64,000 nt of DNA from Minisyncoccota bacterium (GCA_041661795.1 JBAZTS010000003.1:3939-67938), one strand, 5' to 3'. Shown: positions 22,091-64,000, numbered from the stretch's first letter. The notes: generated by a model from the letters alone, not told the origin. A program made the numbers and translations.

Positions 22091-22145
22091 GTTATAAGCA
22101 ATGGAATTGAAATTAAAGTCGGGTATTTTCCAAACAAAAATTTAG

Positions 22146-23525: not shown

Positions 23526-23526
23526 C

Positions 23527-24483: not shown

Positions 24484-24544
24484 AATTTATTTTCAATTTT
24501 TACGACCTTTTTACTTTAAATAATTATAACAAATTATTTTAAAA

Positions 24545-24979: not shown

Positions 24980-24994
24980 TTTTTATTTTTAATT

Positions 24995-25336: not shown

Positions 25337-25340
25337 ATAT

Positions 25341-25724: not shown

Positions 25725-25755
25725 AATTAAATTATAACAACATTATTTTATAAAA

Positions 25756-26232
25756 CTATCCCTTTATCCCCAGGAGGGTTATAAGAGTGTCCACTATTAA
25801 CCAAGCGGCGAATGTAATCAATAGAGCAATAATTACTCCTTGAGCCATACTCTTTCCTTTGGAAAATTTCCCTTCGTTGCCTTGGGCGGTCATCATCATA
25901 AATCCTCCCACCATTATCCAAATAACTCCCACCGGAACAGCCACACTAAAAACAGCAAACCAGATTATCTTATCAACCATCACCATAAAATGCTTAAAGG
26001 TGCATGGAACTAAAGTTGTTTTGGTTGTTGGGTCTTCGTTTCCACAAGGAACTAATGGAATTTTACCGTTCCTTGATTCGCATTTTATTCCGTCGGGTTC
26101 TTCGCTGTTACATGGAACAACAATAATTGGCGGAGAGTTTGGCTCCTGCGGTTGAGCAGAAACAAAACTCGTTGAAAAAATATTAAACAAGACCAACCCG
26201 AACAAAGTTAAATAAAATATTTTTTTTGGCAT
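25756..26232 (-). CDS. TrbC/VirB2-type T4SS pilin, paralog 5 (Cys-rich N-terminal region)
   Basis: Signal peptide, six Cys in the variable region, and a two-TM core (IIWFAVFSVAVPVGVIWIMVGGFMMM...KFSKGKSMAQGVIIALLITFAAWLIV). Confidence 0.5.
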   Translation of the reverse strand: MPKKIFYLTLFGLVLFNIFSTSFVSAQPQEPNSPPIIVVPCNSEEPDGIKCESRNGKIPLVPCGNEDPTTKTTLVPCTFKHFMVMVDKIIWFAVFSVAVPVGVIWIMVGGFMMMTAQGNEGKFSKGKSMAQGVIIALLITFAAWLIVDTLITLLGIKG

Positions 26233-34418: not shown

Positions 34419-34490
34419 GCGCCTGTAGCTCAGTGGTAGAGCGCTACTCTTATAAAGTAGATGTCGTAGGTTCGATCCCTACCAGGCGCA
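34419..34490 (+). tRNA. tRNA-Ile with anticodon UAU (decodes AUA)
   Basis: 72-nt cloverleaf: acceptor GCGCCTG/CAGGCGC, D-arm GCTC-AGTGGTA-GAGC, perfect anticodon stem CTACT/AGTAG with loop CTTATAA (U33, anticodon TAT, A37), T-arm GTAGG-TTCGATC-CCTAC. Confidence 0.7.
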
Positions 34491-34492
34491 CT

Positions 34493-41019: not shown

Positions 41020-41175
41020 AATAACTATTATATCTTATTAATTAATATAAATAGTAGTAGTAACAGTAGTGTCTGTGGATATGTGGAAAAGCTCATGGTG
41101 GGGCTTATATAATATTGTTTTTAAAACCATCTTATTTAATTAATTGAGTAAAAATTGTTGATAAACTGGGTAAGT
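41020..41175. other. Candidate oriC segment / DUE (dnaA-dnaN intergenic)
   Basis: AT-rich. DnaA-box-like TGTGGATAT (41074-41082) and TGTGGAAAA (41082-41090). Confidence 0.4.
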
Positions 41176-43973: not shown

Positions 43974-44367
43974 TTTAATGGGCTTTAATGATTTTTCTAT
44001 TAACTTTTCTCAAGAGTCAAGGCGTTTTTCGGTTTTTATAAACGACGGGCCATTTCTTGACCGCCATCTTTCTCAATTTGTTTCCGATATGGATTTTATT
44101 CTAAAAGGAATAGCTATAAAAAAGGGCTTGGAACTATCGTTTGTTGATATAAATAATTACAGAAAAGAAAGAGAAGAACTTATTATAAAATTAGCCAAGG
44201 CGGCTGCCAGAAAAGTTATAACAGAAAAAAAAGAAGTGGCACTGCCTCCCATGAACGCCTATGAGAGAAGAATTATCCATTCGGAACTGGCTGTTCATCC
44301 GGATATAAAAACAGAAAGCCAAGGAGAAGGAAAGGAAAGAAGGGTGATTATAAAACCCATCGCTTAA
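43936..44367 (+). CDS. jag: Jag/KhpB-like RNA-binding protein (KH + R3H)
   Basis: C-terminal R3H: LPPMNAYERRIIHSELA. Downstream of yidC. Confidence 0.7.
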   Translation: MEQTQEILKRLISLMGFNDFSINFSQESRRFSVFINDGPFLDRHLSQFVSDMDFILKGIAIKKGLELSFVDINNYRKEREELIIKLAKAAARKVITEKKEVALPPMNAYERRIIHSELAVHPDIKTESQGEGKERRVIIKPIA

Positions 44368-46727: not shown

Positions 46728-46850
46728 AAAACTAATTTTACCATAAACAAAGAGTTATCCCCATATAAATTATTTTTTTATTGTGATACAATTTTACTAA
46801 CGTCAGCAAAATAAAATTTTGCAACTCAATATTATTAATAAAAAAATAAA

Positions 46851-48020
46851 ATGGAATATAATACAAATCCATCGCAGTTTAATCCTGGAAGAGATAACTC
46901 TCCTCAGGGAAGCGTTCCTCCTCCGCCTCCGGCTCCAGAACAGCAAGTGGGAGTAAGAACTATGAATTCAGATTTAGAGTCGGTTCAACAAACGGGAGGG
47001 GACTCTCCTCAGTCACAAGTTATAAGCGCTCCAGAACTTTCTGCGCTAAGAAATAATCAAGCACCCGCTCAACCTCAATATCAACCACAACCACAACCGC
47101 AACAACCAATCCTGGAAACAATTCCGGCCCCACCTCAATCATTTACTGAAGAATCTTCTCAAGTCGTTGATGTGTCGGAAAAATCTTCAAAATTAAAAAC
47201 TATTATTTTAGTGGTGGTAATTGTTGTTTTGGCGGTAGCTGTTGGGTTTGGTGTCTATTATTTAATTTCTTCTTTAAATAAAACTCCCCAAGCAACCGTT
47301 CCAACACCTCCTATTCAGGAACAAAACATTCCTGTAGTAGAAACTCCAATTCCACAACCAGAAGTTGTGGTTCCTCCTGCCCCAGTTCATGTTTCGGTTA
47401 TATCTAATCCGACAAAAACGGAAACCGTGGCCATTGATTTATCCGGCGATTTTAAATTAGCCATAACTAAACCAGCCGAAGAAAAACTTTTGGTTGGTAG
47501 TGTCAAGGAATTGTTATTTGTTGATGCTCAAAATAATGCGGTTGCTGCGGCCTCTATTTTCGGCAAAATCTATCCTTCTGGAGGAACCCTGCCGTTTTCC
47601 GTGAGTGATGCAACTTACTGGCTTTATGCCGACAAAACAGGTGGAAATAAATTCGGAACTGTTTTTGAAGTTTCTGATTTAACTAGTGCAAAAACATCTT
47701 TAAGTCCAATTTTGGAATCAGCCGATATAGCAAAAACTCTTTTCGTTTCAGACGTTACGGTTCCGGCTAAGCCCGAATTCAAAGACGGACAAGTAGAAGG
47801 TCAAGCCGTTAGATTTTTGGCTTTCAACGCCAAAACCAACGATGTTTTTGAATATGCTTGGATGAGCGTTGCCGGAAAAAATTATTTAGTCATTGCTACG
47901 TCTTATAATCAGATGGTGGATATAATAAAGAGATTAAAAGCAATACCGCAAGTAATTAATCCTCTAATAACTTCTACCTCTACAGCTACTACATCAACTT
48001 CCACTTTGATTAATCCATAA
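46851..48020 (+). CDS. Pro/Gln-rich membrane-anchored hypothetical protein
   Basis: Disordered P/Q-rich N-terminus (PPPPAPEQQ...QPQYQPQPQPQQP), one TM (IILVVVIVVLAVAVGFGVYYLI), and an extracytoplasmic domain. Confidence 0.45.
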   Translation: MEYNTNPSQFNPGRDNSPQGSVPPPPPAPEQQVGVRTMNSDLESVQQTGGDSPQSQVISAPELSALRNNQAPAQPQYQPQPQPQQPILETIPAPPQSFTEESSQVVDVSEKSSKLKTIILVVVIVVLAVAVGFGVYYLISSLNKTPQATVPTPPIQEQNIPVVETPIPQPEVVVPPAPVHVSVISNPTKTETVAIDLSGDFKLAITKPAEEKLLVGSVKELLFVDAQNNAVAAASIFGKIYPSGGTLPFSVSDATYWLYADKTGGNKFGTVFEVSDLTSAKTSLSPILESADIAKTLFVSDVTVPAKPEFKDGQVEGQAVRFLAFNAKTNDVFEYAWMSVAGKNYLVIATSYNQMVDIIKRLKAIPQVINPLITSTSTATTSTSTLINP

Positions 48021-48023
48021 GAC

Positions 48024-48356
48024 ATGAACTTAGAAAAATACAAAGAACAACTCAATAAAGAAAGAGAAGAAATTTTGAGTCAGATGAAGGAAGCAAAAAC
48101 TCCTCCTGATTTTGGCAATGAGCCGGGGCCGGACGACGAAACAGACGAAGCCGAAGAGTATTTTAATCAAACGTCATCTCTGTCTCTTCTTAGAAACAAA
48201 TTGTCTGATATTGACTCCGCTTTAATCAGAATAGAAAAAGGAGAATACGGAAAATGTGAACAGTGTGGAATGGAAATAGAAGAAGATGTTCTGGAAATTT
48301 CTCCCCACTCGCGATTTTGTAAGGATTGCAATAAGTCAAAAATAGTCAGTAAATAA
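48024..48356 (+). CDS. DksA/TraR family C4-type zinc-finger protein
   Basis: Coiled-coil N-terminus and C-terminal CEQCGMEIEEDVL...CKDC. Confidence 0.7.
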   Translation: MNLEKYKEQLNKEREEILSQMKEAKTPPDFGNEPGPDDETDEAEEYFNQTSSLSLLRNKLSDIDSALIRIEKGEYGKCEQCGMEIEEDVLEISPHSRFCKDCNKSKIVSK

Positions 48357-48362
48357 AAAGAA

Positions 48363-48393
48363 ACAGTCCCAACGCGACGTCGGGACTGTTTTT
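48363..48393 (+). terminator. Rho-independent terminator
   Basis: CAGTCCCAACGCGACGTCGGGACTGTTTTTAT. Confidence 0.75.
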
Positions 48394-48402
48394 ATAAAAT
48401 CG

Positions 48403-49935
48403 ATGTCCAAAACGGTATCAAAAATATTTTCTGCCGAGTTGGAGGGAATAAATTCAAGGCCCATAGAAGTGGAGACCGACATTAATGTTGGTTTGGCTTC
48501 GTTTACGATTGTGGGATTGGCCGATAAAGCGGTTTCGGAGGCCAAAGAGAGAGTCTCTTCGGCAATAAAAAATTCAGGGTTAAAACCGCCAAATAAAGAA
48601 AATAGGAAAATCACAGTGAACTTAGCTCCAGCTGATGTAAAAAAGAACGGGTCTCAATATGATTTAGCTATTGCCTTGGGATATCTATTGTCGTCTGGAC
48701 AGATGAGACCGTTTGATTCTTCCAAAAAGATATTTATCGGTGAACTTTCCTTGGACGGAAAATTAAGAAGAGTGGTGGGAGTTTTAAATATAGTCGGAAT
48801 GGCCAAGGACATGGGATTTGAAGAAATTTTTATTCCTAAGGACAATTCTTATGAAGCATCTTTTATAAAGGGAATAAAAATTTATCCGGTAGAAAATCTC
48901 GTTCAAATTATTAGTCATCTTGAAGAAAAGAGTTTTATAGAATTAAGCAAAGAGAGCGAATTTGTCCCGTTGCGGTTTTTAGGTGTAGATATTTCCGAGA
49001 TAAAAGGTCAGGAAAATGCCAAGAGGGCCTTAATGATAGCCGCAGCCGGTGGACATAATATTTTTATGTCCGGGCCTCCTGGGGCTGGAAAAACAATGTT
49101 GGCTCAGTCGCTTGTTTCTGTGTTGCCTCAAATGTCTTTAGAAGAGGCGCTGGAAACAACTAAAATATATAGCGCCGCCGGACTTCTGGAGAAAGACTTA
49201 TTTATTGCTTCTCGACCGTTTCGTTCTCCACATCACAATGCTTCCATGGTGTCGGTAGTTGGCGGAGGACAAAATCCAAGGCCGGGAGAAGTAAGTTTGG
49301 CTCACCGGGGAGTTTTATTTCTTGATGAAATTCCGGAATTCCACAGAGATGTTTTAGAAGCCCTAAGACAACCACTTGAAGATGGTAAGGTGACCATCTC
49401 AAGATCAAGAGGCGTTTTAACTTTGCCTTGTAGGTTTATGATGGTAGCCGCCTCCAATCCTTGTCCTTGCGGATATTTTGGTGACGACAAAAAAGAGTGT
49501 CAGTGTAATCCCTATGAAATTGCCAGGTATCAGAAAAAACTATCAGGACCTCTTTTGGACAGAATTGATATTCATATCTGGGTGGGAAGATTAAATTCAG
49601 AGGATCTGAAAAATCCTATTAATCCCAACGAATCAGAGAGCATAAGAAAAAAAATTTTTGACGCCAGGAACATTCAAAAAGAAAGATTTAATAAATTAAA
49701 TTTGAAAATATTTGCTAACTCGGAACTTTCATCAAAACAAGTTGATAGTATTGTTAAGTTAGAACCGCAGGCAAAAATTTTGTTGGATAAAATGTTTGAT
49801 AAGGCCTACCTTTCGGCCAGGGGATATTTTAAAATCCTAAAAGTAGCTCAAACAATAGCTGACTTAGACGGCTTGGAAATTATTACTCCACAAATAATTT
49901 CAGAGGCGTTCTCATATAGAGCCAGGGTAAGTTAA
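48403..49935 (+). CDS. comM: YifB/ComM family Mg-chelatase-like AAA+ ATPase
   Basis: N-terminal Lon-protease-like/ChlI domain, Walker A GPPGAGKTMLA, and the characteristic C-terminal domain. 510 aa. Confidence 0.85.
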   Translation: MSKTVSKIFSAELEGINSRPIEVETDINVGLASFTIVGLADKAVSEAKERVSSAIKNSGLKPPNKENRKITVNLAPADVKKNGSQYDLAIALGYLLSSGQMRPFDSSKKIFIGELSLDGKLRRVVGVLNIVGMAKDMGFEEIFIPKDNSYEASFIKGIKIYPVENLVQIISHLEEKSFIELSKESEFVPLRFLGVDISEIKGQENAKRALMIAAAGGHNIFMSGPPGAGKTMLAQSLVSVLPQMSLEEALETTKIYSAAGLLEKDLFIASRPFRSPHHNASMVSVVGGGQNPRPGEVSLAHRGVLFLDEIPEFHRDVLEALRQPLEDGKVTISRSRGVLTLPCRFMMVAASNPCPCGYFGDDKKECQCNPYEIARYQKKLSGPLLDRIDIHIWVGRLNSEDLKNPINPNESESIRKKIFDARNIQKERFNKLNLKIFANSELSSKQVDSIVKLEPQAKILLDKMFDKAYLSARGYFKILKVAQTIADLDGLEIITPQIISEAFSYRARVS

Positions 49936-49963
49936 GCGAGTACCGGGCACCGTATGCTGTATA

Positions 49964-50000
49964 CCGCGCAAAAAAGTATTTTGCGTTATTTTTTTATTTG
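49964..50000 (+). terminator. Possible terminator hairpin CGCAAAA-AAGTATT-TTGCG plus T-run
   Basis: Sits between comM and the likely uvrD start at 50017. Stem is weak. Confidence 0.35.
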
Positions 50001-50016
50001 TTGTAATTTATTAGTC

Positions 50017-51804
50017 ATGACTGGCACGTTTGAAGACCTAAACGACAAACAAAAAGAAGCGGTTTTTTTTGGTGATGGCCCTCTCTTAATTGTAGCTGGA
50101 GCCGGATCGGGAAAAACAAAAACTCTGACTTCGCGCTTGGCCTATTTGATTTCGGAAAAAAAGATAAGTCCCGAGAGAATTGTGGCTATTACCTTTACCA
50201 ATAAGGCGGCGGGGGAAATGAAAGAAAGAGTAAGTAAAATACTGTCTTATAATAACAAAAGTCCAAAGGAGCCATTTGTGGGAACGTTCCATTCTTTTGG
50301 CGCCGGCATCTTAAGAAAAGACGGCAATGTTTTTGGAAGAAATAAATATTTTAGTATCTTTGACGGAGACGACAGTGGAAGATTGGTAAAAAATATAATA
50401 AAAAACATAAACTTAGAAAAAAAGCTTCCTTCTCCGCTGTTTTTTATAAAAGAGATTTCAAGAATAAAAAATGAACTATTAAATCCGGAAGATTATTTTT
50501 CAGGAAAAGACGGAGAGATAGTAAAAATGGTTTTTTATGAATATGAAAAGAAATTACAGGAAAACAACGCCTTTGATTTTGATGATTTAATAGAAAAAGT
50601 GGTTAGAATTTTTAAAACTAAACCCCAAATTCTTCTGGAATATCAAAAAAGGTATGACTACATATTGGTTGATGAATATCAGGATATAAACACATCTCAA
50701 TATTGGATGATTAAACTTCTAGTTGAGAGACACAACAACATCAATGTGGTTGGCGACGACTCACAATCCATTTACATGTTTAGATTCTCTGATTTTAGAA
50801 ACTTTCTTAATTTTGAAAGGGATTGGCCGGGAGCTAAAACCGTTTTTCTGGAACAAAATTATCGTTCCACAAAAAATATAATAGAATCATCATCGCGATT
50901 GATTGCCCACAATCTTTCTGGAAATAAGAAAGAACTTTGGACCAAAAATGACGAGGGGTCATTTGTCCAAGTCATAGAGCATGAAGACGAATTTGTTCAG
51001 GCCGATTTTATTGTTGATAAAACCAGGGATTTTTTAAAAAACAATATGAGTGTCGGGATACTTTTTAGGACCAATGCTCAAAGCCGAGCTTTAGAGCAGG
51101 TCTTTGTTGAATATGGAATTGACTACGATTTATTTGGGGCAGTTTCTTTTTACGAAAGAAAAGAAATAAAAGATATTTTAGCGGCTCTAAGATTGGTTTC
51201 CAATCCTTTGGACCAAATAAGTTTTGAGAGGATGGAAAAAAGTTTTGGTAAAAGAGCGGCGGCACAGATAAAAGAAAAGATTTTAGGTGCTTTAGGATTG
51301 AGCCCCTCAGAAACAATAGGACTTTTTATAGAATCGTCTGGACTATTTGAATTGATAAAAAAAGAGTATCCGAATTATCAGGAAAGATATGAAAACATAT
51401 CGGAATTAATTTATTTTGCTCAACAGTTTGATTCTCTGGAAAAATTCTTGGAAAAGATTTCCTTGGCTAGCCCCCTGGAAATGACAAATAAAAGAAGGAA
51501 GAAAAAAAACTATTCGGGAGCCAATTTAATGACGGTGCACCTTTCCAAGGGGCTTGAATTTGACGTGGTTTTTATTTCGGGAGTAAACGAAGGACTTTTG
51601 CCCCACCAGAGATCATTTTTTACATCCGATGAGCTGGAGGAAGAGAGGCGATTAATGTATGTAGCTATGACTAGAGCCAAAAAAGAACTGTTTATAAATT
51701 TTTACGGAGTTCCTTCAAGATTTTTATTTGAATTGCCTCCTGAAAAAACCGCTTTTTCCGGCGACCGTCCGTTAAACGAGGAAGAGAGATTTATAGAGTA
51801 TTAA
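50017..51804 (+). CDS. UvrD/PcrA/Rep family ATP-dependent DNA helicase (short form)
   Basis: Walker A AGAGSGKTKTL and helicase motifs II-VI (VDEYQDIN, YRST). Start moved to the MTGTFEDLNDKQ Met. Confidence 0.8.
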   Translation: MTGTFEDLNDKQKEAVFFGDGPLLIVAGAGSGKTKTLTSRLAYLISEKKISPERIVAITFTNKAAGEMKERVSKILSYNNKSPKEPFVGTFHSFGAGILRKDGNVFGRNKYFSIFDGDDSGRLVKNIIKNINLEKKLPSPLFFIKEISRIKNELLNPEDYFSGKDGEIVKMVFYEYEKKLQENNAFDFDDLIEKVVRIFKTKPQILLEYQKRYDYILVDEYQDINTSQYWMIKLLVERHNNINVVGDDSQSIYMFRFSDFRNFLNFERDWPGAKTVFLEQNYRSTKNIIESSSRLIAHNLSGNKKELWTKNDEGSFVQVIEHEDEFVQADFIVDKTRDFLKNNMSVGILFRTNAQSRALEQVFVEYGIDYDLFGAVSFYERKEIKDILAALRLVSNPLDQISFERMEKSFGKRAAAQIKEKILGALGLSPSETIGLFIESSGLFELIKKEYPNYQERYENISELIYFAQQFDSLEKFLEKISLASPLEMTNKRRKKKNYSGANLMTVHLSKGLEFDVVFISGVNEGLLPHQRSFFTSDELEEERRLMYVAMTRAKKELFINFYGVPSRFLFELPPEKTAFSGDRPLNEEERFIEY

Positions 51805-55661: not shown

Positions 55662-56495
55662 ATGAGACAAAAATTAGGACAGCATTTTTTAAAGAATAAA
55701 GAAGTTTTGGAAAACATTGCCGACTCTCTTGAATTAAAAAAAGGCGACGTTGTTATAGAAATAGGTCCGGGGCACGGGGAATTAACGCAATATTTGCTTA
55801 ATGCTGGCGTTACTATTATTGCCATAGAGAAAGATGAGAGTATGGTGGAATATTTATGTAATAAATTCGAAGCACGAAGCACAAAACTCGAAACAAGCAC
55901 AAAATCCAAAATTCAAAACAATGAGTTAAATTTAATTAATGGGGACGCCCTCAAAATACTCCCTGTTTTGAATACGGTATACGACATACGGCATACGAAA
56001 TACAAAATTGTTGGCAATATTCCCTACTACATAACTGGGCATCTGTTAAGAATTATTAGCGAGTTAAAAAACAAACCCAAATTAACTGTTTTACTTATAC
56101 AAAAAGAAGTGGCGCAAAGAATTTGCGCAAAATCTCCACAAATGAATTTATTATCTGCTAGTGTGCAATTTTGGGCGGAACCCAAAATAATACAAAATGT
56201 GACTAGGGGAAATTTTAATCCTCCTCCAGACGTTGATTCGGCTATTGTTTTGTTAAAAACAAAATCACTGATTAACACGGATAAAAATAACACACGGATT
56301 GATACAGATATATACTATGGTTTTATAAGAAAAATTTTTAAGCAACCCAGAAAAACGGTTTTGAATAATTTAATTAGTGGTGGATATAAGAAAGATGAGG
56401 TTTTGGGGTGGTTTAAAAATAACAAAATAAAGGAGAATTGCCGACCGCAGGATTTTGATGTGAATATGCTGATAAAAATGGCTTTAGAGCTTTAA
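55662..56495 (+). CDS. ksgA: 16S rRNA (adenine1518/1519-N6)-dimethyltransferase KsgA/RsmA with a repeat-derived in-frame insertion
   Basis: GQHFL, SAM site EIGPGHGELT, NGDAL and VGNIPY motifs. Insertion KFEARSTKLETSTKSKIQNNE is encoded by the AAATTCGAAGCACGAAGCAC repeat at 55863-55882. Confidence 0.8.
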   Translation: MRQKLGQHFLKNKEVLENIADSLELKKGDVVIEIGPGHGELTQYLLNAGVTIIAIEKDESMVEYLCNKFEARSTKLETSTKSKIQNNELNLINGDALKILPVLNTVYDIRHTKYKIVGNIPYYITGHLLRIISELKNKPKLTVLLIQKEVAQRICAKSPQMNLLSASVQFWAEPKIIQNVTRGNFNPPPDVDSAIVLLKTKSLINTDKNNTRIDTDIYYGFIRKIFKQPRKTVLNNLISGGYKKDEVLGWFKNNKIKENCRPQDFDVNMLIKMALEL

Positions 56496-56576: not shown

Positions 56577-57407
56577 ATGCAAACTTTAAACTTTAAAAAT
56601 CCGTTTGTTATTTTTGGAATTATTGTGATTATCTTTGTTGGTTATTGGATACTCGGAGGATTAACTCCAGATAAAATTATAAATCTTTCTAAAGATAGTG
56701 CTGACGTAGTTAAAAGTAATAATTCTCAACAATTGGGAGATTTGAGCTGGGTAGAAAATCCAAACGATGTCGCAAAAGATTTGTCTCAGACGTCGCTGGA
56801 AAATTTAACCAGCAAACTATCAGAAAACATATCTTCGGAATTTCTGTCTCAAGTAGATTTTTCTCAAGCATCATCTTCTCCTAAGAACTTAATAGATCAA
56901 TTAAACGGAGCAGATTTGAATGATCCTAAAACACTTTCTTTTTTAAAAAATAACCCACTTGGGTTTTTATATAGCATACCCGACAAGAGTATTAAAATTT
57001 CTTCTGATAACTCATCTCAAAAAGCAGTTGAATACATTTTTAGTTATACAAGCATCATGTCTGAAGTTGCTGGTCAAAAATCACAAGACCCGCAAGACCT
57101 TCTGGAAGAAATTACCTCTGTTATTGAAAGCCAGGACCAAGGAGAAATGTCTCAAATGGCGTTTAATTTAAATAAGGGATTTGATAGAATAATACAATTA
57201 GAAGTTCCTTCGGGTTTAGTTGAATTACATAAACAAAACTTAATGATATTCAAAAATTCAGCGATTGTTTTTGGGGCGTTGGCTTATAAGGATAACGACC
57301 CGTTAAAGGCGTATCTTGCGGCCATGAATGGTTCTGACCTTATTATAAAAGAAACCGACAAAGCCGATTTATTATTTAAGGAGGCATCTAAAAAATATTC
57401 CTTATAA
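56577..57407 (+). CDS. Hypothetical membrane-anchored protein
   Basis: N-terminal TM (FVIFGIIVIIFVGYWILG) and a hydrophilic Ser/Asp-rich domain. Upstream of T4SS-like genes. Confidence 0.45.
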   Translation: MQTLNFKNPFVIFGIIVIIFVGYWILGGLTPDKIINLSKDSADVVKSNNSQQLGDLSWVENPNDVAKDLSQTSLENLTSKLSENISSEFLSQVDFSQASSSPKNLIDQLNGADLNDPKTLSFLKNNPLGFLYSIPDKSIKISSDNSSQKAVEYIFSYTSIMSEVAGQKSQDPQDLLEEITSVIESQDQGEMSQMAFNLNKGFDRIIQLEVPSGLVELHKQNLMIFKNSAIVFGALAYKDNDPLKAYLAAMNGSDLIIKETDKADLLFKEASKKYSL

Positions 57408-57413
57408 AAATTT

Positions 57414-59003
57414 ATGGTAAGCGTTTTTAAAAAAATATTGATAGTGGTAGTGCTTTTTTCTTTTGTTTTAAATGCCTCTGGGGTTGCTTCGTTTTTTACG
57501 GTCAAAAAAGCGCAAGCGGCTTGGCCTGTCAGCGAACTGCTCTCTCTGCCGACTTTTATTCAGATAATGAAAGACCTTGCGCAATGGATTAAAACTGAAT
57601 TGCTAAAAGCCCTAAGAGACGCCGTTGTTAAATCTATTATAGCCAAAATACAAAATGATATAATCCAACAAGTAACTGGTGGTAATGGAGGGGATAGCAG
57701 TTTTGTCTCTGATTGGGGCTCTTACCTAAAGGATGATATTATTAATTCTACTTTTAGTGAGTTTAACGATATTTTAGCCAATGATACTGGAATTGATTTG
57801 TGCGTTCCTTTTGCTCAGCAGTTCTTGTCGTTGCGGTTAAATGCTTTAACTGCCAGTTATGGAGTTGGTCAGGACTATCTTGGTCTTCCGGTTAGATGTA
57901 CTTTTGACCAATTTAAATACAATTTGGAATATACTTATGATTTTATAACAAAAGGAGGATGGGCTTCTTATGACGCCCTCTTCTCTCCAGATATTAATCC
58001 CTATTGGATATCTTGGCAGGTTGAAGATAAATTCGCTCAACGTGTTGCTGAACAAAAAGATGCAAAAAAATCTGAGGCCGAAAGCTCGGGAGGATTTTTA
58101 GGAACAAAAGAGTGTAAGATGTATGGTCCTAAAACAGAACAACAAATAAGAGATGAGTGTACCGATGACGTTATAAATGGAACCGCACAAGGAGAAGCCG
58201 GAGAAGCTTTTAAAAGTTGTTTGGGGTATCTTACTCAACAAAACTGTAAAGAGTGGGGGATTCTTACTCCGGGACAAGCAGTTTCGGAAGCTGTAACAAA
58301 AGCGATTGGTTCTGATTTTGAATATGCAGAAAACGTTCAAAGTGCCATATCGGCTATAATAAATGTTTTAGTGTCAAAAGCTCTAAGTGAAGGACTTCAA
58401 AGTGCTTCAGGAGGAACAACCGTTAATAGAGAACCCGGAGATTTAGATGGTACAGGATTTGAGGATTATGAAGGCGAAACATACAGGCAAGACCTGGAAG
58501 ATGCTAACAGGGATTATGATGACATAATTTATTATATTACTAACGACCTAGGGCCGATTGTTTCTACGGTTTTAGCTTTTGCGCACGACATGGCCGGAGA
58601 CGGAACGGATTTGGAAAGTTGTCCGAATAGTAGAATAAGTGTTGATGATGGAAGCGGAACAAAAAAAATATATACCGCGGCAGAAATTATTGATTTGCTA
58701 AATGGATTTGATTTGAATAATTCCAGCTCAGCTACTTCGCGAGCCCTGACTCAAGCCAGAGCCAATCAAATTGAAGTTTCGAATTTATTAGACCAAGACA
58801 ATCCGAGTAGTAATGACGTTAATAAGGTGGTTAATAAGTTGTCTAATTTTGTCAGGACATATCAGCCATTTTACATTGACGTTCAGCTGGTTAATAGTGG
58901 TGGTGACGGAGAATTAGTAACTCTGGTTTGGAATATTTACAACGCTCTAAGGGCGTTTAACAACGAAGACGGTAATGATAAGAATAATTTTGTCTGTAGA
59001 TAA
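57414..59003 (+). CDS. Hypothetical secreted/membrane-anchored protein (Cys-containing, acidic)
   Basis: N-terminal signal/anchor (ILIVVVLFSFVLNASGVASF) and 529 aa with several Cys pairs. Co-directional with the VirB6-like gene, with a 3-bp gap. Confidence 0.45.
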   Translation: MVSVFKKILIVVVLFSFVLNASGVASFFTVKKAQAAWPVSELLSLPTFIQIMKDLAQWIKTELLKALRDAVVKSIIAKIQNDIIQQVTGGNGGDSSFVSDWGSYLKDDIINSTFSEFNDILANDTGIDLCVPFAQQFLSLRLNALTASYGVGQDYLGLPVRCTFDQFKYNLEYTYDFITKGGWASYDALFSPDINPYWISWQVEDKFAQRVAEQKDAKKSEAESSGGFLGTKECKMYGPKTEQQIRDECTDDVINGTAQGEAGEAFKSCLGYLTQQNCKEWGILTPGQAVSEAVTKAIGSDFEYAENVQSAISAIINVLVSKALSEGLQSASGGTTVNREPGDLDGTGFEDYEGETYRQDLEDANRDYDDIIYYITNDLGPIVSTVLAFAHDMAGDGTDLESCPNSRISVDDGSGTKKIYTAAEIIDLLNGFDLNNSSSATSRALTQARANQIEVSNLLDQDNPSSNDVNKVVNKLSNFVRTYQPFYIDVQLVNSGGDGELVTLVWNIYNALRAFNNEDGNDKNNFVCR

Positions 59004-59006
59004 AAA

Positions 59007-61355
59007 ATGAATTATTTTAGAGGAAATAAAAAGACTTTAATAAAATCATTATTGATGTTGGTTTTAGTTGTAACTCTGTTTGGGTTTTTTAATCAAGAAG
59101 CTCAAGCGGGTATTTTAAGTAGTTTTATAGATTTTTCGGGGTCTGTTTTGATAAAAATTATATTGTTTGTTTTTGGTTTAATTCAATGGTTGGTAGGAGT
59201 TGTATTCATTAAATTTGGGGCCATGCTTGTCAACTTTGCAATGTACATTAATAAAGGATTGTTAACAGATTTAAACGATACTCACTTTGTCATAATTGGA
59301 TGGAAAGTTTTTAGAGATTTGGCAAATTTAGGGTTTACTTTGGGAATAATAATAATTGCCGTTTCCATTATTCTTAGATTTAAAAGTTATGGCTCTCAAA
59401 AAGTTCTTACAAATCTTATAGTGGCGGCTCTTTTAATAAATTTTAGCTTAGTTATTGCCGGTTCAATAATAAAAACATCAGATGTTTTTTCGAACTTCTT
59501 CTTAAAATATATTGATGCTTCTGGAACTAGTAACTGGTCAGCTAGAATTACCGGTATGTTTAGAATGCAGGGAGTTGTTATTTCTAAAGATCCGTCAGCG
59601 CGACCAGTTTGCGATGCTGAAAATGATGAAAAAATTAAAGAAGCTTGTGAGCAACAAAAGAAAGATGGGACAATAACAGATGTTGATGCCTGTATTAAAA
59701 ATGTTACGGATAGTATGTGTAAATTTGACTCTGTTATACCAGATAATACGGATTTAGCAAACATCAAAGAAGATAGCGCGCTTTCGGCTAGTTTTTATAC
59801 TTTGGCCGGTCTTTTAATATCTATAGTGGTAGGTGTTTTTATCGGATTAACGCTTTTGGCGTTAGCTTTTATGCTTCTTTTAAGATATTTTAATCTCGCT
59901 TTTCTTTTAATGGTATCGCCTCTTGTTTGGGTTCTTTGGGTATTTCCTTATACCAAACAATATTGGAAAAAATGGTGGGATAGTTTTATAAAATGGGTTT
60001 TATTTGCTCCGATAACGCTGTTCTTTGTATATTTAACATTAATTTTCCTTTCTAAAAGTAGCGGTGGTTTTGGAGGGCAGGCGAATGAAGTGGCTACTGG
60101 TTCTGGAACAAGTATAGCCGGTATTGGTTTTGCAGATATGATGATTCCCTTTATGGCTGGGGCATTGCTTTTAGCTGGATTAAAAATCTCTCAAACGATG
60201 GGATTTGCTGGAGCCGGATTTGTTTTGAAGCAGTCCTCAAAATTGCAAAATTGGGCAAAAACAAAAGCTCGAAGAGGAGCGGCAAGAGCTGGAAGAAGGG
60301 CTTTAGGAGAGAGGACCAGAAATGTAGCAAATAAAATTGGTTCTAGTAAATGGGCTAATAGATTGACTTTAGGAGGAGCAAGTAAGCTCGCTGAAGTAAC
60401 AACCAAAGGCAGGGCTACCTTAGAAAAAAAATCTCAAGAATTTATTGATGAAAAAGTTAAACATTATGAGACCATAAAAGATTCCAAACAATTAGCCGCT
60501 CTTCTCCCAACAATGAACAAAGAAGAAAGAATGGCGGCGTTAGAGGTTTTGTCTAAAAGAGGAGACATGAAAGAAACTCAAGGATTACTTGGAATGGATC
60601 AAGTAATAGAATCGGTTGAAACCGCTAATACAATTGGTCGTGGTAAGTCGGCGTCTGATACTCAGAAATCTTTTGGAATGAGTCTTAATATGATGAAAGC
60701 TATGAAAAGTAGCGATGGAAAGCACGAGGGAAAAACATATGAGGAACACGCTAAGGAATTTTACGGAAATTTTTCATCTGATGATTGGAAAAAATCGGGG
60801 GCTGCAATAGGAAATCATATTTTTAAACCAGTGGACCCAACGACTAAAGAGGTGGTAGATATGCCAGGAATGACAAAAGAACAATCAAATAAGTTTAGGG
60901 AGCAGTATGTGGCTGGTTTGACCGGAGGTTTTGGAGAAGGGATATCTGCTATCGCCCCCAAACTCAAAGGAGAAAGCACGAAAAAAATGCTTGAGGATGT
61001 TGTAGCATCTGTTGCTGGAGATGCGGAAGTAGTAAGTATCAAAGATGCTATAGAAAAAGCGAGTAAAGATATGGATGGTGATAAAGTTATTGAACTTGTG
61101 CGTCAAAGGGATGAGGAGGGAGTGAAGGAAATAAAAATAACTGCCAGTCGTGATGATATATTAAGAGCTATAAGAGAAGGTGATTTGGATAAAGCTGTTA
61201 ATCTTATGAAAAATTCTAAAAATCCCAAACTAATAACTATCGCCTCTAAGATTAACAAGAGTATGGGAGCTGCTATACTGTCTGCTAGTGGAGAAGAAGG
61301 CAAATCAGAAGAGAAGAAACCAGAGGAGAAGAAACCAGAGGAACCTAAGAAATAA
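59007..61355 (+). CDS. VirB6/TrbL-like polytopic T4SS membrane protein with Lys/Glu-rich C-terminal extension
   Basis: Signal/TM, about 8 TM helices with a Cys-containing extracytoplasmic loop, then an about 380-aa hydrophilic tail. Synteny VirB6-like, then VirB3-like, then VirB4 as in Gram-positive conjugation loci. Confidence 0.45.
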   Translation: MNYFRGNKKTLIKSLLMLVLVVTLFGFFNQEAQAGILSSFIDFSGSVLIKIILFVFGLIQWLVGVVFIKFGAMLVNFAMYINKGLLTDLNDTHFVIIGWKVFRDLANLGFTLGIIIIAVSIILRFKSYGSQKVLTNLIVAALLINFSLVIAGSIIKTSDVFSNFFLKYIDASGTSNWSARITGMFRMQGVVISKDPSARPVCDAENDEKIKEACEQQKKDGTITDVDACIKNVTDSMCKFDSVIPDNTDLANIKEDSALSASFYTLAGLLISIVVGVFIGLTLLALAFMLLLRYFNLAFLLMVSPLVWVLWVFPYTKQYWKKWWDSFIKWVLFAPITLFFVYLTLIFLSKSSGGFGGQANEVATGSGTSIAGIGFADMMIPFMAGALLLAGLKISQTMGFAGAGFVLKQSSKLQNWAKTKARRGAARAGRRALGERTRNVANKIGSSKWANRLTLGGASKLAEVTTKGRATLEKKSQEFIDEKVKHYETIKDSKQLAALLPTMNKEERMAALEVLSKRGDMKETQGLLGMDQVIESVETANTIGRGKSASDTQKSFGMSLNMMKAMKSSDGKHEGKTYEEHAKEFYGNFSSDDWKKSGAAIGNHIFKPVDPTTKEVVDMPGMTKEQSNKFREQYVAGLTGGFGEGISAIAPKLKGESTKKMLEDVVASVAGDAEVVSIKDAIEKASKDMDGDKVIELVRQRDEEGVKEIKITASRDDILRAIREGDLDKAVNLMKNSKNPKLITIASKINKSMGAAILSASGEEGKSEEKKPEEKKPEEPKK

Positions 61356-61356
61356 T

Positions 61357-62379
61357 ATGTTGAAGGTTGATAATAAAACGATAAATAAAAGGTGGGATGA
61401 AGCTCCGGACGTTTTAAGAGAGGCGGTATTTTCTCCTGTTTGCAATGATGCCTTAGAAAATGTTTGTGAAGAGTTTCATTTAGTTGAAGAAAAAAGAGTT
61501 ATTTTAAGACGATTAGGATTTTTTGTTTTTTTTGGCTTTATTCATCTTCAGGACTTGTATAAAGAAATAAAAGATAGCTTAGGAATAGATGGACGGCTAG
61601 CTCTGGAAATTTATCAAGAGTTAGATAAAAAAGTATTTTCTCCCTTCCACAAAGAAATAGAGGATAATTATTTGAAATTTAAAATAGGAGTAGTAAGACC
61701 GGAAGATATTGACGAGGCCCCTAAAGCTCAAATTCAAAGAGTAGTTCTTAAAGAACAGGAGCCGAGCGTGGTAGATTTGAAACCGGTGGAAATAATAAAG
61801 GACAGAGGAGAGAGAACAGAGAATAGTGAAGAGAGGGTAGGGACGCAAGAGACGGAACCACCAAGCCCATTAGAGGAGAAAGAGAAGCCCCCTGTTGTTA
61901 TAAAGCCGACCCAGGAAATTAATGAACAGGGTAAAGAGGAAAGGGAAAAAGGTAAAGTAGAAGAAAGAATTATTGTCAAAAAACCAATTGAGTCCATTCC
62001 ACTGACCCCTAAACCTTTACCCCTCACCCTTAGTGATGTTGCTGACTTGGGGCCGGTGATTATTCATAAAAGAGAGGAACCTTCATCTGTTTCTCAAACA
62101 AAAGCTACCAGCGGGTTTAAAATAAATACGTTTGGAGGATTTTTCGGTTCTTTTAAATCGTCCATACCAAGACAACAAGACGCGGTTTCCAAAGCCCAAG
62201 TTCAGACGCCGAGCAATTTTAAAAAAGAAGAAATGAGCGAAGCCGGAAAAGTGCCGGTGGTGGTAAAAAAATACGAAGAACAACCAAAAACAATACACTA
62301 TAGTGGATTTAAAACCGATCTTGGAAAGAAATCAGAAGAAAAAGATAATAGCGAAAAGATAGATTTAAATAAATTATAA
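61357..62379 (+). CDS. Hypothetical protein (Glu/Lys/Pro-rich C-terminus)
   Basis: Start moved to the MLKVDNKT Met immediately after the upstream stop. No recognisable domain. Confidence 0.4.
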   Translation: MLKVDNKTINKRWDEAPDVLREAVFSPVCNDALENVCEEFHLVEEKRVILRRLGFFVFFGFIHLQDLYKEIKDSLGIDGRLALEIYQELDKKVFSPFHKEIEDNYLKFKIGVVRPEDIDEAPKAQIQRVVLKEQEPSVVDLKPVEIIKDRGERTENSEERVGTQETEPPSPLEEKEKPPVVIKPTQEINEQGKEEREKGKVEERIIVKKPIESIPLTPKPLPLTLSDVADLGPVIIHKREEPSSVSQTKATSGFKINTFGGFFGSFKSSIPRQQDAVSKAQVQTPSNFKKEEMSEAGKVPVVVKKYEEQPKTIHYSGFKTDLGKKSEEKDNSEKIDLNKL

Positions 62380-62389
62380 CTATTTATTT

Positions 62390-62497
62390 AAGCACGAAGC
62401 ACTAAATCCGAAATTCGAAACAATATTTAAATTCTAATGTTAAAAATTTTTAAACTCAAACACCGTTTCGGATTTTGATATTAGAATTTCGAATTTT
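62390..62497. repeat. Intergenic repeat block: AAGCACGAAGCAC + AAATCCGAAATTCGAAA, then inverted TTTCGGATTTTGATATTAGAATTTCGAATTT
   Basis: Member of a family also found at 55863-55882, 63068-63106 and (inverted) 63501-63532. Confidence 0.7.
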
Positions 62498-62504
62498 ACT
62501 AATT

Positions 62505-63056
62505 ATGGCTCAATTTGAAGTACCACAATTTATAGATATGGAGCCAAAAATTGTTGGCCCGTTAACGTTAAAACAGTTTGCTTTTATAGCGGCTCCTTTT
62601 TTGATTTCATTCTTTCTATTTTTTGTATTAAACAGATTTGTCTGGTTTATTATGGCTTTTATTTTGGCGGTTTTTGCCATTTTATTTGCCTTTGTAAAAG
62701 TTAGCGGACGGCCTTTTTGGAAAATCTCTCTTTACGCTTTAACGTTTTTCTGGCAACCAAAACTTCTTTTATGGAAGCGGGCTGTTATACAAGAAAGAAT
62801 AGAAATTCCTGCTCCGGTTGCCGTCAAAGCTGTGGCCGAAAAAAGAAGCGCCCTAAAATCAGTTTCATTGGGAGTATCAGGAAAGATTGCGGGAGTGTCA
62901 AAGCTTTGGCAGGATTTAACCACAACCAAAAATCCGATTCCAAAAAGAGAAAAATCTGTTCCTAAAAAAACAATCTCGGATATAAAAGAACAATACATGG
63001 TTTTTAAGAAGATGAGTGGCGAGAGAGAAGTAGCTAAACGAATAGATTACAGGTAG
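62505..63056 (+). CDS. PrgI/VirB3-like small T4SS membrane protein
   Basis: N-terminus FEVPQFIDMEPKIVGPLTLKQFAFIAAPFLISFFLFFVL, then a second TM: VirB3/PrgI-like topology. Start moved to the MAQFEV Met. Confidence 0.45.
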   Translation: MAQFEVPQFIDMEPKIVGPLTLKQFAFIAAPFLISFFLFFVLNRFVWFIMAFILAVFAILFAFVKVSGRPFWKISLYALTFFWQPKLLLWKRAVIQERIEIPAPVAVKAVAEKRSALKSVSLGVSGKIAGVSKLWQDLTTTKNPIPKREKSVPKKTISDIKEQYMVFKKMSGEREVAKRIDYR

Positions 63057-63067
63057 TCTATTCGTTT

Positions 63068-63106
63068 AAATTCGAAGCACGAAGCACGAAATCTGAAACA
63101 AATCAC
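63068..63106. repeat. Repeat AAATTCGAAGCACGAAGCACGAAATCTGAAACAAATCAC
   Basis: Shares a 20-mer with the ksgA copy at 55863-55882. Confidence 0.7.
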
Positions 63107-63107
63107 A

Positions 63108-63473
63108 ATGACAAAAATCCAAAATAATAAGCAATATGATTTAGAAGAGAGAACCTATGAGTTTGCCAAGAACGTTAGGGTATTTATTAAGAAAATCAGA
63201 AGAACAATATCAAACATTGAAGATGGAAAACAAGTCATAAGATCGTCAGGTTCTATGGGAGCTAATTATATAGAAGCCAACGAAGCATTAAGTAAGAAAG
63301 ATTTTATTATGAGAATTAAAATTTCCAGGAAAGAATCTAAAGAAAGTGTTTATTGGCTGACCTTGATAGATGTTGAGGGTGATAAAGATTTAGAAAAAGA
63401 AAGAGAAATTTTAGTAAATGAGGCACAAGAATTGATGTTAATTTTTAGTTCTATTATGAGGAAATCAGTTTAG
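63108..63473 (+). CDS. Four-helix-bundle protein (family often encoded in rRNA intervening sequences / accessory loci)
   Basis: YDLEERTYEFAKNVRVFIKK...GANYIEANEALSKKDFIMRIKISRKESKESVYWLTLI pattern. Confidence 0.55.
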   Translation: MTKIQNNKQYDLEERTYEFAKNVRVFIKKIRRTISNIEDGKQVIRSSGSMGANYIEANEALSKKDFIMRIKISRKESKESVYWLTLIDVEGDKDLEKEREILVNEAQELMLIFSSIMRKSV

Positions 63474-63500
63474 TTATTTTTTATTTATAATTTAGATATT

Positions 63501-63532
63501 ATTTCGAATTTCGATATTCGAATTTCGTGCTT
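63501..63532. repeat. Inverted copy of the TTCGAAA / AAGCACGAA repeat family (ATTTCGAATTTCGATATTCGAATTTCGTGCTT)
   Basis: Immediately upstream of a TATAAT (63542-63547) and the VirB4 start. Confidence 0.65.
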
Positions 63533-63553
63533 AGATTATGGTATAATCTATTT

Positions 63554-64000
63554 ATGAGTGATAAGGTTGTTGAAAAAATTATTTCTCCTCCAAATTCTAC
63601 TCAGAGATTTGTTGATGTAGAGGAGATAAAAAATGGAGTGGTTGTTTTAAAAGGAGGCGCTTTACGAGCCGTAATTATGGTTTCAGGGGTAAATTTTGAA
63701 CTTAAATCCGAAGATGAACAAGATATTATCACATCAACCTACCAAGATTTTTTAAATTCTCTGGATTTTTCTCTCCAAATAGTCATCCATTCAAGAAAGC
63801 TTAATATAGAAAATTACCTCAAAAAGATGGAGGAGATAAGAAATAAAGAATCAAGCGAACTTTTAAGAAATCAGATAGACGAATATGTGTCTTTTATAAG
63901 AAGTTTTGTTAAAGAGAACGAGATTATGACTAAAAACTTTTTTGTCGTAGTTCCTTATGAGGCGGCCGGAGCTGGGGAAATAAAAAAGGGATTCTTTGGA
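63554..64000 (+). CDS. VirB4/TrbE/CagE-like T4SS ATPase, N-terminal domain (3'-partial, runs off the window)
   Basis: Reading by eye, MSDKVVEKIISPPNSTQRFVDVEEIKNGVVVLKGGALRAVIMVSGVNFELKSEDEQDIITSTYQDFLNSLDFSLQIVIHSRKLNIENYLKKM resembles conjugative VirB4/PrgJ-type N-terminal domains (not checked against any alignment). No stop before the window end. Confidence 0.5.
   Translation, partial: MSDKVVEKIISPPNSTQRFVDVEEIKNGVVVLKGGALRAVIMVSGVNFELKSEDEQDIITSTYQDFLNSLDFSLQIVIHSRKLNIENYLKKMEEIRNKESSELLRNQIDEYVSFIRSFVKENEIMTKNFFVVVPYEAAGAGEIKKGFFG

Follow-up and report, generated by a model that had tools for sequence, protein, structure and literature searches.

Gene content of the cluster

We analyzed a 64,000-nucleotide stretch of DNA from a Minisyncoccota bacterium (GCA_041661795.1, JBAZTS010000003.1:3939-67938; below, the window) and focused on the co-directional block of genes at its 3' end (positions 56577 to 64000), which encodes components of a putative type IV secretion system (T4SS). 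The source genome is listed at NCBI as Candidatus Paceibacterota bacterium. A 48-kb assembly contig overlapping the window (L001) was found through an exact copy of a 121-amino-acid (aa) protein; window coordinates equal L001 coordinates plus 53107. The DNA inspected, by gene tables and Pfam scans, came to 73 kb in total, made up of the window and 9 kb beyond its end. Genes beyond the window are given below in window-equivalent coordinates.

Each of the open reading frames (ORFs) that a first-pass annotation of the window had claimed between 56577 and 64000 was found on the plus strand at those coordinates. On L001, the cluster lies 3' of ksgA (rsmA, RrnaAD, PF00398; 55662 to 56495, plus strand), which is a conserved neighbor at the 5' border and not a part of the machine. 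The co-directional genes that follow encode, in order, proteins of 276 and 529 aa, a VirB6-like protein, a protein of 340 aa, PrgI/VirB3, a TrsD-like protein, VirB4, and proteins of 169, 236, 321, and 404 aa. Two inserted genes, one for a four-helix-bundle protein and one for a PDDEXK_3 protein, break this order on L001. The spacers within the block measure 6, 3, and 1 nt, save where repeats or inserted genes sit, and a promoter and terminator scan of the cluster gave signal no better than that of shuffled sequences. On the 3' side of the 404-aa gene, the contig carries genes for a histidine kinase, Fpg, and CTP synthase.

The VirB4, TrsD, PrgI, and VirB6 proteins

Extension of the contig recovered the complete virB4 as a gene of 583 aa (64668 to 66419; L001 11561 to 13312). 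Its product has a Walker A motif (KSGGGKS) and a Walker B motif (LVVDEAW) and matched the domains P-loop_TraG (PF19044, 98 bits), AAA_10 (49.6 bits), and DUF87 (30.4 bits). In tblastn searches against plasmids, it was 28 to 36% identical to VirB4-like conjugal transfer ATPases of the CD1110 family from Firmicutes and Actinobacteria, compared with 62 to 88% identity to the VirB4 proteins of other Patescibacteria loci. The alignment with VirB4 of Clostridium botulinum plasmid pCDC3875 showed 31% identity over 551 residues and spanned residues 214 to 757 of 797 (BLASTP, E value = 2e-86). The sole sequence match in the PDB was that of residues 234 to 569 with the C-terminal domain of Thermoanaerobacter pseudethanolicus VirB4 (4AG5/4AG6, E value = 1e-46), a likeness that is confined to the ATPase domain and is silent on the rest of the machine. 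The assignment of this gene to the VirB4 family, which the first-pass annotation had made from an ORF running off the window, was upheld by the PF19044 and 4AG5 matches.

The reading of VirB4 as one long gene starting at 63554 was not. That ORF stops after 222 aa and constitutes a separate TrsD-like gene with its own stop codon (63554 to 64222, plus strand; L001 10447 to 11115), the first 149 codons of which lie within the window (63554 to 64000). The TrsD-like protein matched the NCBIfam model TrsD/TraD (41 bits) and, below threshold, the N-terminal regions of three VirB4 models; for the full gene, PF26593 (TraC-like) is on record and TraC_F_IV scored 25.4 bits. It aligned with residues 30 to 193 of the 797-aa clostridial VirB4 (E value = 4e-7). 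The TrsD-like and VirB4 genes align to successive parts of one clostridial VirB4 and are therefore collinear with one ordinary VirB4. The same split was present in four related loci (L002, L006, L007, and L009), and a separate TrsD-like N-terminal domain is the normal arrangement in Patescibacteria (PMC12102498).

The PrgI/VirB3-like protein (62505 to 63056, plus strand; 183 aa) has two hydrophobic segments, presumed to be transmembrane, and matched PF12666 with 34.4 bits, which clears Pfam's own gathering score of 27 and bears out the homology proposed for this gene. Its start at 62505 was set by alignment with orthologues, in which M1, Q3, F4, P7, and Q8 are invariant (MxQFxxPQ). A BLASTP comparison with clostridial PrgI was negative, which is uninformative for a single-sequence template.

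The 782-aa protein (59007 to 61355, plus strand) is predicted by simple hydropathy to be a polytopic membrane protein, with 7 hydrophobic segments and a 352-aa hydrophilic tail containing 63 K/R and 58 D/E residues. A match to PF19590 (TrbL_3) is on record, in the class of E values of ≤1e-5, for the very protein encoded here and for 24 of the 55 homologues detected. Among the 56 members of the family, query included, PF04610 (TrbL) was matched by 5 and the NCBIfam CD3337/EF1877 mobilome membrane protein by 12, while single members matched models of a mycoplasma integrated conjugative element (ICE) protein and of Bacteroides TraJ. A sequence profile of the family returned compositional noise or nothing from the PDB. 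The recorded PF19590 match and the TrbL/VirB6-type matches of the relatives are consistent with the VirB6/TrbL identity first proposed for this gene, and we accept it as an extended VirB6-like protein, with a caveat on our local Pfam copy that is given below.

Comparison with known type IV secretion systems

The order VirB6, PrgI, VirB4 had been likened to that of Gram-positive conjugation loci, and pCDC3875 indeed has the same order: its annotated genes are VirD4, a hypothetical, VirB6/TrbL (CD1112), PrgI, a hypothetical, VirB4 (CD1110), a hypothetical, and an SLT hydrolase. With the Firmicutes systems of the mating-pair-formation class FATA (MPF-FATA; pCDC3875 CD1110/CD1112, pCF10 Prg/Pcf, and pGO1 Trs), the locus shares this order, the VirB4 similarity described above, and a monoderm design without VirB7, VirB9, and VirB10; a separate TrsD-like N-terminal domain is found in the pGO1 subclass. 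In contrast, the conjugative systems of this class have no pilins but encode VirD4 together with a relaxase and an SLT/CHAP hydrolase, whereas the locus described here has pilins, and neither VirD4, a relaxase, nor an SLT or CHAP domain was found with it. It also lies off any mobile element, and its VirB6 is far larger (782 versus 260 aa).

A closer parallel is provided by the Patescibacteria themselves. The T4SS of Southlakia epibionticum (SEML1_0004-0019) comprises VirB6-like proteins, PrgI, a 293-aa protein, VirB4, a Hedgehog/DD-peptidase protein, a lysozyme/cysteine-protease protein, and six PF18895 pilins; neither the T4SS nor the pilins can be dispensed with in epibiotic growth, and the system has no recognizable coupling protein or relaxase (PMC10633639). 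In a survey of 3,035 genomes, VirB4 was present in 2,417 and formed a Patescibacteria clade nested in MPF-FATA; TrsD was the commonest associated component, PrgI and VirB6 were encoded near virB4, relaxases were rare, VirB2 arrays of 2 to 11 genes numbered 441, and dnaA, dnaN, rnpA, and ksgA were typical neighbors in Paceibacteria (PMC12102498). These points are restated in a 2025 review (PMC12857230).

At our locus, the separate TrsD, the PF18895 pilins in an array, the lack of a relaxase or coupling protein nearby, and the vicinity of dnaA and ksgA are all features of the Patescibacteria clade. With the Southlakia system in particular, the locus shares its chromosomal position near the origin and ksgA, the order VirB6-like, PrgI, separate TrsD-like, VirB4, the divergence of the PF18895 pilins in the array, a putative Hedgehog/DD-peptidase-type protein 3' of VirB4, and the absence of a relaxase or coupling protein from the locus. 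The two differ in that the pilin array lies 30 kb off, across the origin, whereas in Southlakia it is adjacent, and in that the peptidase-like domain here shares a 321-aa protein with a pilin module, whereas in Southlakia it is part of a protein of 1113 aa. Compared with the published description of Southlakia, moreover, the accessory set (276, 529, 340, 169, 236, and 404 aa) appears peculiar to this Paceibacteria-type lineage, neither an NTF2/VirB8-like gene nor a lysozyme gene turned up here, and the operon is interrupted by two small inserted genes.

These comparisons indicate that the block in the window is very probably the 5' half of a chromosomal, origin-proximal Patescibacteria T4SS descended from monoderm MPF-FATA conjugation machinery. 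T4SSs of the Patescibacteria clade are already published (Wang 2023; Quiñonero-Coronel 2025); the locus leaves the definition of the system unchanged, and its novelty is smaller than the first-pass annotation implied.

Conservation across relatives and genomic context

We compared the locus with those on contigs encoding five members of the 529-aa family of decreasing similarity. The 12-gene order was identical in L002/L003, L006, and L007, and the core order was present in L009 (an 840-kb contig). In these relatives, ksgA is followed by genes for a protein of ~255 to 297 aa, a member of the 529-aa family, proteins of ~740 to 850 and ~335 to 376 aa, PrgI, TrsD, VirB4, and proteins of 130 to 177, ~230 to 244, 272 to 343, and 375 to 422 aa. 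A histidine kinase gene lies 3' of the cluster in L006 and L007, where the fetched DNA reaches that far, and on three short contigs a 276-like gene stands immediately 5' of a 529-family gene. Positional equivalents were nearly all homologous by BLASTP, the exception being a 130-aa L007 gene in the slot of the 169-aa gene, which gave no hit; the 404-aa position was compared outside L002 and L009, in which the gene runs off the fetched DNA. Gene order is thus kept in four independent, divergent Patescibacteria loci.

Identity to the window proteins differed strongly along the cluster. It was 62 to 88% for VirB4, 47 to 72% for TrsD, 33 to 63% for PrgI, and 27 to 48% for VirB6, compared with 22 to 40% for the 340-aa protein, 24 to 44% for the 236-aa protein, 27 to 43% for the 529-aa protein, and 22 to 32% for the 276-aa protein. 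As judged from these identities, the cytoplasmic motor is under strong constraint and the predicted exported proteins are fast-evolving.

The gene ksgA adjoins the cluster also in L002, L004, L006, and L007, and its presence near virB4 has been noted in Patescibacteria (PMC12102498). Some 15 kb 5' of the cluster lie dnaN (39898 to 41019) and dnaA (41176 to 42549); the spacer that separates the two contains three near-consensus DnaA boxes (41074 to 41164). The putative origin is flanked by the pilin array on the minus strand, ~15 kb to its left, and by the T4SS core on the plus strand, ~15 kb to its right; the minimum of the cumulative GC skew falls near 30 to 32 kb. The other origin-proximal genes are housekeeping genes, encoding RnpA, YidC, R3H/Jag, PolA, a DksA/TraR zinc finger protein, a ComM-like ATPase, UvrD, FtsH, a penicillin-binding protein, RuvC, GyrA, RecA, PNPase, and tRNA synthetases. 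The segment from 44364 to 51804 shares with L002, L006, and L007 a run of genes for PolA, an unannotated protein of ~390 to 410 aa, the DksA/TraR zinc finger protein, a ComM-like Mg-chelatase ATPase, and UvrD, after which come ksgA and the T4SS.

This context bears on whether the locus could be the transfer module of an ICE that mobilizes DNA to other cells. Its VirB4, PrgI, and VirB6 most resemble genes that serve conjugation on Firmicutes plasmids and ICEs and stand in the same order, and a tyrosine recombinase gene and a tRNA-Leu gene are present at 20.4 to 22.2 kb. Neither a relaxase nor a type IV coupling protein (T4CP) domain was detected in any gene scanned across the 73 kb, however, and replication or partition genes were likewise absent from it; the sole FtsK-family gene in this DNA (107 to 1996) encodes FtsK alpha and gamma domains. 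The GC content of the cluster equals that of the background, and the recombinase gene lies 35 kb off, beside an unrelated GC-rich islet. Furthermore, the same flanks (ksgA on the 5' side and a histidine kinase on the 3' side) occur in genomes whose orthologues are 22 to 47% identical outside the ATPase; the sharing of housekeeping flanks by such divergent genomes indicates vertical inheritance. We consider it highly improbable that the present locus is such a transfer module and retain the reading of a resident chromosomal Patescibacteria T4SS.

Exported and accessory proteins

The 529-aa protein (57414 to 59003, plus strand) has a signal-like N terminus ending in AQA|AW and contains 8 cysteines. 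Within its family, C130, C162, C234, C278, C403, and C528 are near invariant, and an AxA|W cleavage-like site is conserved; the six near-invariant cysteines and this site imply export and disulfide bonds for the family. A word-based search returned three relatives only, whereas a profile search of 1.84 billion representatives of 50%-identity clusters returned 2306 cluster representatives at an E value of ≤1e-3 and 960 at ≤1e-10. No Pfam or NCBIfam model matched the protein, and a sequence profile search of the PDB gave only coiled-coil noise.

Structure prediction with AlphaFold2 from an alignment of 121 sequences gave a usable model (mean predicted local distance difference test [pLDDT] score, 74.9; >90 in the C-terminal domain, residues 350 to 517). 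In this all-helical model, two short hairpins are present and the C-terminal bundle is predicted with confidence, and Foldseek found no match to it in the PDB or BFVD at an E value of ≤0.001. A first model from a 4-sequence alignment was unusable (pLDDT, 46.6).

A member of the 529-aa family lies directly 5' of the VirB6-like gene in every locus examined. In L009 (GCA_023244895.1; L009 3 to 6040), two tandem paralogues of 1212 and 800 aa with long N-terminal extensions precede the VirB6-like gene. This invariable place beside VirB6 makes the 529-aa protein a strong candidate T4SS component, with its role deduced from position and sequence features.

The first gene of the cluster encodes the 276-aa protein (56577 to 57407, plus strand), for which hydropathy suggests an N-terminal anchor, with a single hydrophobic segment at residues 11 to 29 and a predicted extracellular body. 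It is fast-evolving: positional orthologues in L002, L006, and L007 were 22 to 32% identical, and equivalents were present in L004, L008, and L010. No match to it was found in Pfam, NCBIfam, or the PDB. The proposal that the 529-aa and 276-aa proteins are candidate components gained support from their synteny with the core in every locus examined. Perhaps the two are undescribed core extracellular subunits of the T4SS, forming a pilus-tip or host-membrane-contacting module that replaces VirB5 or an adhesin, with a divergence that tracks host-surface specificity; we offer this tentatively.

Between the VirB6-like gene and prgI, the hypothetical ORF of the first-pass annotation proved to be real and on the plus strand, with a revised start, most likely the ATG at 61357 (61357 to 62379, 340 aa) rather than the overlapping GTG at 61288. 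Its product has no strongly hydrophobic segment and consists of a conserved N-terminal domain of ~105 aa, a long low-complexity linker rich in E, K, and P, and a conserved C-terminal VHYS.FKT motif. Orthologues, 22 to 40% identical, occupy the same position in L002, L006, L007, and L009, and no match was found in Pfam or the PDB.

Past the end of the window, the 169-aa protein (66434 to 66943) and the 236-aa protein (66966 to 67676) had no domain match or other sequence match, and the 404-aa protein (68691 to 69905) has an anchor, a Gly-rich linker, and weak matches to beta-propellers. Sequence profiles of the 236-, 276-, and 340-aa proteins returned compositional noise or nothing from the PDB. 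In all, five conserved envelope or secreted proteins of the cluster (276, 529, 169, 236, and 404 aa) have no known fold.

Pilins and a putative pilin-peptidase fusion

Five divergent VirB2-like pilin genes (132, 144, 113, 127, and 158 aa) lie at 24085 to 26232 on the minus strand, 30.3 kb from the start of the cluster at 56577, in agreement with the first-pass annotation, which had placed five pilins about 30 kb from the core. All matched PF18895 (T4SS_pilin), with scores of 44.6, 22.7, 37.0, 45.4, and 21.7 bits against a gathering score of 26.6, so that three are above and two below it, and one also matched TrbC/VirB2 weakly. All five proteins combine a signal peptide with two hydrophobic helices, and their pairwise local identities range from 16 to 59%, in line with the VirB2 arrays described for Patescibacteria (PMC12102498). 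The genes after the array encode a solute-binding protein and GyrA, and no pilus ATPases were present there. Their sequences identify the array proteins as pilins of the VirB2 type of T4SS, not of type IV pili.

A sixth gene with a pilin domain lies inside the core cluster just past the end of the window (67718 to 68683, 321 aa; PF18895, 26.4 bits against the gathering score of 26.6). The 321-aa protein combines a VirB2-like module and a Cys-rich C-terminal domain, in which the motif S-x-H-Y-x-G-x-A-x-D ... A-H-I-H occurs. A profile of this domain built from 6 sequences matched the N-terminal domains of Sonic, Indian, and Desert hedgehog at the zinc-binding H-x6-D segment (E values, 0.006 to 0.04) and, weakly, M15 peptidases (E values, 0.09 to 0.4). 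In Southlakia, a protein with a Hedgehog/DD-peptidase domain (SEML1_0007) is encoded downstream of VirB4 (PMC10633639), and the putative Hedgehog/LAS-type domain of the 321-aa protein parallels it. No SLT or CHAP domain was found in the cluster, and the LAS-type motif of the 321-aa protein matches profiles only weakly.

Proposed function

In the mechanism that we propose, PrgI and TrsD would hold VirB4 at the membrane, and VirB4 would supply the energy for assembling a VirB2 pilus or channel through VirB6. Local opening of the cell wall could fall to the LAS-type domain of the 321-aa protein, and the distal, host-contacting part may consist of the secreted proteins that evolve fast, chiefly those of the 529-aa family. 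Contact-dependent exchange with the host, by export of protein or import of host material, would then support an epibiotic lifestyle. By analogy with Southlakia, the machine is most likely used for epibiotic exchange with a host cell and not for conjugation, because no relaxase or coupling protein is encoded nearby and because the cluster is embedded in conserved housekeeping synteny.

The first-pass annotation had linked the machine to DNA uptake, and in its full form this would make the locus a DNA-import (competence-type) T4SS, like Helicobacter ComB or archaeal Ced, that takes up host DNA or nucleotides through its pilus. Import systems likewise have no relaxase or T4CP nearby, the genes conserved upstream of the cluster handle DNA (PolA, the DksA/TraR zinc finger protein, the ComM-like ATPase, and UvrD, with RecG in L007), comF, recG, and radA stand beside T4SS genes in class ABY1 (PMC12102498), and nucleotide synthesis is lacking in Patescibacteria (PMC10633639). 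Published genetics nevertheless lends the link no support: transformation of Southlakia needs comEC, and cells survive a comEC deletion that ends competence, yet the T4SS is essential (PMC10633639, PMC12857230), so that DNA uptake does not explain the essentiality of the T4SS. In addition, no ComB-specific or Ced-specific component was detected, and the neighbors are ordinary origin-proximal housekeeping genes that may be linked by position only. We consider DNA import unlikely as the function of this locus and favor epibiotic exchange by a Patescibacteria T4SS.

Several observations nonetheless weigh against this interpretation. The conserved ComM, UvrD, PolA, and DksA/TraR neighbors would fit a DNA-related role. 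The relaxase and coupling-protein negative spans 73 kb, so that either gene could lie elsewhere in the genome, and in many Patescibacteria VirD4 homologues are encoded far from virB4 (PMC12102498). The VirB6 assignment leans on the precomputed Pfam record and on sub-threshold matches of relatives: our local Pfam scan found PF19590 in none of the 56 family members, query included, the model being apparently missing from that copy, and hhalign of the family against the single clostridial VirB6 (CD1112) gave nothing, which is uninformative for a one-sequence template. No VirB8-like or VirB1-like protein was identified in the cluster. Finally, the Hedgehog/LAS peptidase assignment of the 321-aa C-terminal domain is statistically weak (E values, 0.006 to 0.2), and this domain is not kept in all orthologues, being different in L002.

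Apart from that of the Patescibacteria, no T4SS is known to be essential for its bearer. The Patescibacteria system presumably mediates an exchange between epibiont and host that sustains a large share of uncultured bacteria. The present locus gives a clean, fully syntenic parts list of the Paceibacteria type and singles out candidates for the host-facing end, namely, the very large unannotated 529-aa family and the putative pilin-peptidase fusion. Two leads are worth following, the 529-aa family and a cross-phylum hairpin element with a 7-nt period, described next.

Two insertions in the operon

The four-helix-bundle protein, which the first-pass annotation had counted as a member of the block, is the cargo of an intervening-sequence (IVS)-type hairpin element that landed in the T4SS operon and is no part of the T4SS. 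Its 121-aa gene (63108 to 63473) matched PF05635 (23S_rRNA_IVP, 40.9 bits) and TIGR02436 (four helix bundle protein, 58.9 bits) and lies between inverted arms at 63058 to 63101 and 63485 to 63536 (repeats I3 and I9), so that the whole element extends from 63058 to 63536 on the plus strand. The L signature of the element is at 63073 and the R signature is at 63503 (spacing, 430 nt). No four-helix-bundle gene stands between prgI and trsD in L002, L006, L007, or L009.

A second, ORF-less copy of the hairpin (62386 to 62496) occupies the unusually long 125-nt spacer before prgI, compared with 44, 2, and 24 nt for the same spacer in L002, L006, and L007. Inverted repeats I5 and I10 and direct repeats D1 to D3 tie it to the ORF-bearing copy, and its RNA fold has an energy of -20.5 kcal/mol (z = -3.4). 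A partial left arm lies in frame within ksgA (55862 to 55922), where it adds FEARSTKLETSTKS, ~15 residues that are absent from the orthologues. The window thus carries three copies of the hairpin within 8 kb, and the orthologous loci carry none.

The PDDEXK_3 gene (GxxExxY type; 64248 to 64637, 129 aa; L001 11141 to 11530; 101 bits) lies precisely in the interval from trsD to virB4, is missing from L002, L006, L007, and L009, and is a second lineage-specific insertion. The AT-rich repeats around it were considered as an inverted-repeat element and rejected: they are low-complexity words of the ACTAAT type, which also occur upstream of another start codon (L001 14571 to 14609).

With VirB4 in pieces of 222 and 583 aa, a PDDEXK_3 gene between them, and both an IVS-family insertion and an empty hairpin interrupting the operon, one might see in the locus a decaying remnant, no longer working, of which VirB4 has been broken in two and which selfish elements have hit. 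The TrsD/VirB4 split, however, occurs without insertions in all of the relatives and in most Patescibacteria (PMC12102498). All of the ORFs are intact, the insertions fall exactly within intergenic spacers, and VirB4 and TrsD are 88% and 72% identical to their L002 counterparts even though other proteins differ by more than 50%. There is scarcely any likelihood that the locus is a remnant, and we continue to regard it as a T4SS locus into which small elements have inserted.

Distribution of the hairpin element

We scanned 185,579 species genomes (596 Gb) for the hairpin motif AAGCACGAAGCACNAAA and obtained at least 119 matching stretches, with ~280 expected by chance for 16 fixed bases. The counts that follow refer to the matches listed. 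AAAT[TC]CN was immediately upstream of the motif in 63/123 (chance probability, 5e-4), and several metagenome-assembled genomes (MAGs) carried 3 to 6 copies of the motif. The signature TTCGnnnTTCGnnnTTCG occurred within 600 nt downstream in 43/98 and upstream in 3/98, at spacings of 5 to 156 nt in 40 cases and 431 to 469 nt in 3 cases, and the motif paired with a downstream partner in 69/124 folds. The AAGCACGAAGCACNAAA matches are non-random because of this upstream AAAT[TC]CN, the multicopy MAGs, the downstream bias of TTCGnnnTTCGnnnTTCG, and the pairing. The hosts comprised Planctomycetota, Desulfobacterota, Aminicenantes, Omnitrophota, many candidate phyla radiation (CPR) lineages, and one Nanoarchaeia MAG. 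Close relatives of the four-helix-bundle protein lay beside the motif in 2/119 loci (tblastn); most copies of the repeat are therefore ORF-less, and a few have gene-sized loops. The string ATGACCAAAAT after the motif was tried as a general ORF start and rejected.

The arms of the hairpin repeat every 7 nt, with the unit AAnnnCG in the left arm and CGnnnTT in the right arm, which gives 4-bp CGAA/TTCG helices with 3x3 internal loops between them. In a Berkelbacteria MAG, a whole ORF-bearing element 72% identical at the DNA level lies at an unrelated site and, here too, has an empty copy as its partner around an unrelated gene. Rfam gave no match for the hairpin, and the literature searched did not contain the repeat string.

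ORFs of the PF05635 family have been described in IVSs of 23S rRNA and in sequences inserted into CPR rRNA genes (PMC11270868). The element in the window resembles the 23S rRNA IVS elements of the Leptospira and Coxiella type in its length (~480 nt), its PF05635/TIGR02436 ORF, and its terminal inverted repeats able to form a long stem. It differs in its site in a protein-coding operon, the 7-nt periodicity of its arms, and the far greater frequency of empty copies. No rRNA gene is present in the window, and the element lies between prgI and trsD, not inside an rRNA. The insertions show that IVS-type hairpin elements colonize essential operons, and the conservation of the arms across phyla may merit a study of its own. 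On another Patescibacteria contig (L036, 3475 to 3987), the motif is contained within an RNase P RNA gene of 513 nt, 146 nt longer than the 367-nt model, an IVS-like insertion outside rRNA.

Other features of the window

A two-gene islet encoding an SPFH/Band-7 protein and a 158-aa unknown protein (22437 to 24003) has a GC content of 49%, compared with a background of ~35%, and lies between a tRNA-Leu gene (22145 to 22226) and the pilin array. Beside it are the genes for a tyrosine recombinase (20375 to 21286) and a PaaX_M/Cas2-like protein (21443 to 22021), and the islet may be a horizontally acquired insertion. The window also contains a gene for a tRNA-Ile with the anticodon TAT (UAU) at 34419 to 34491, which is uncommon in bacteria, where AUA is usually read by a lysidine-modified CAU tRNA.

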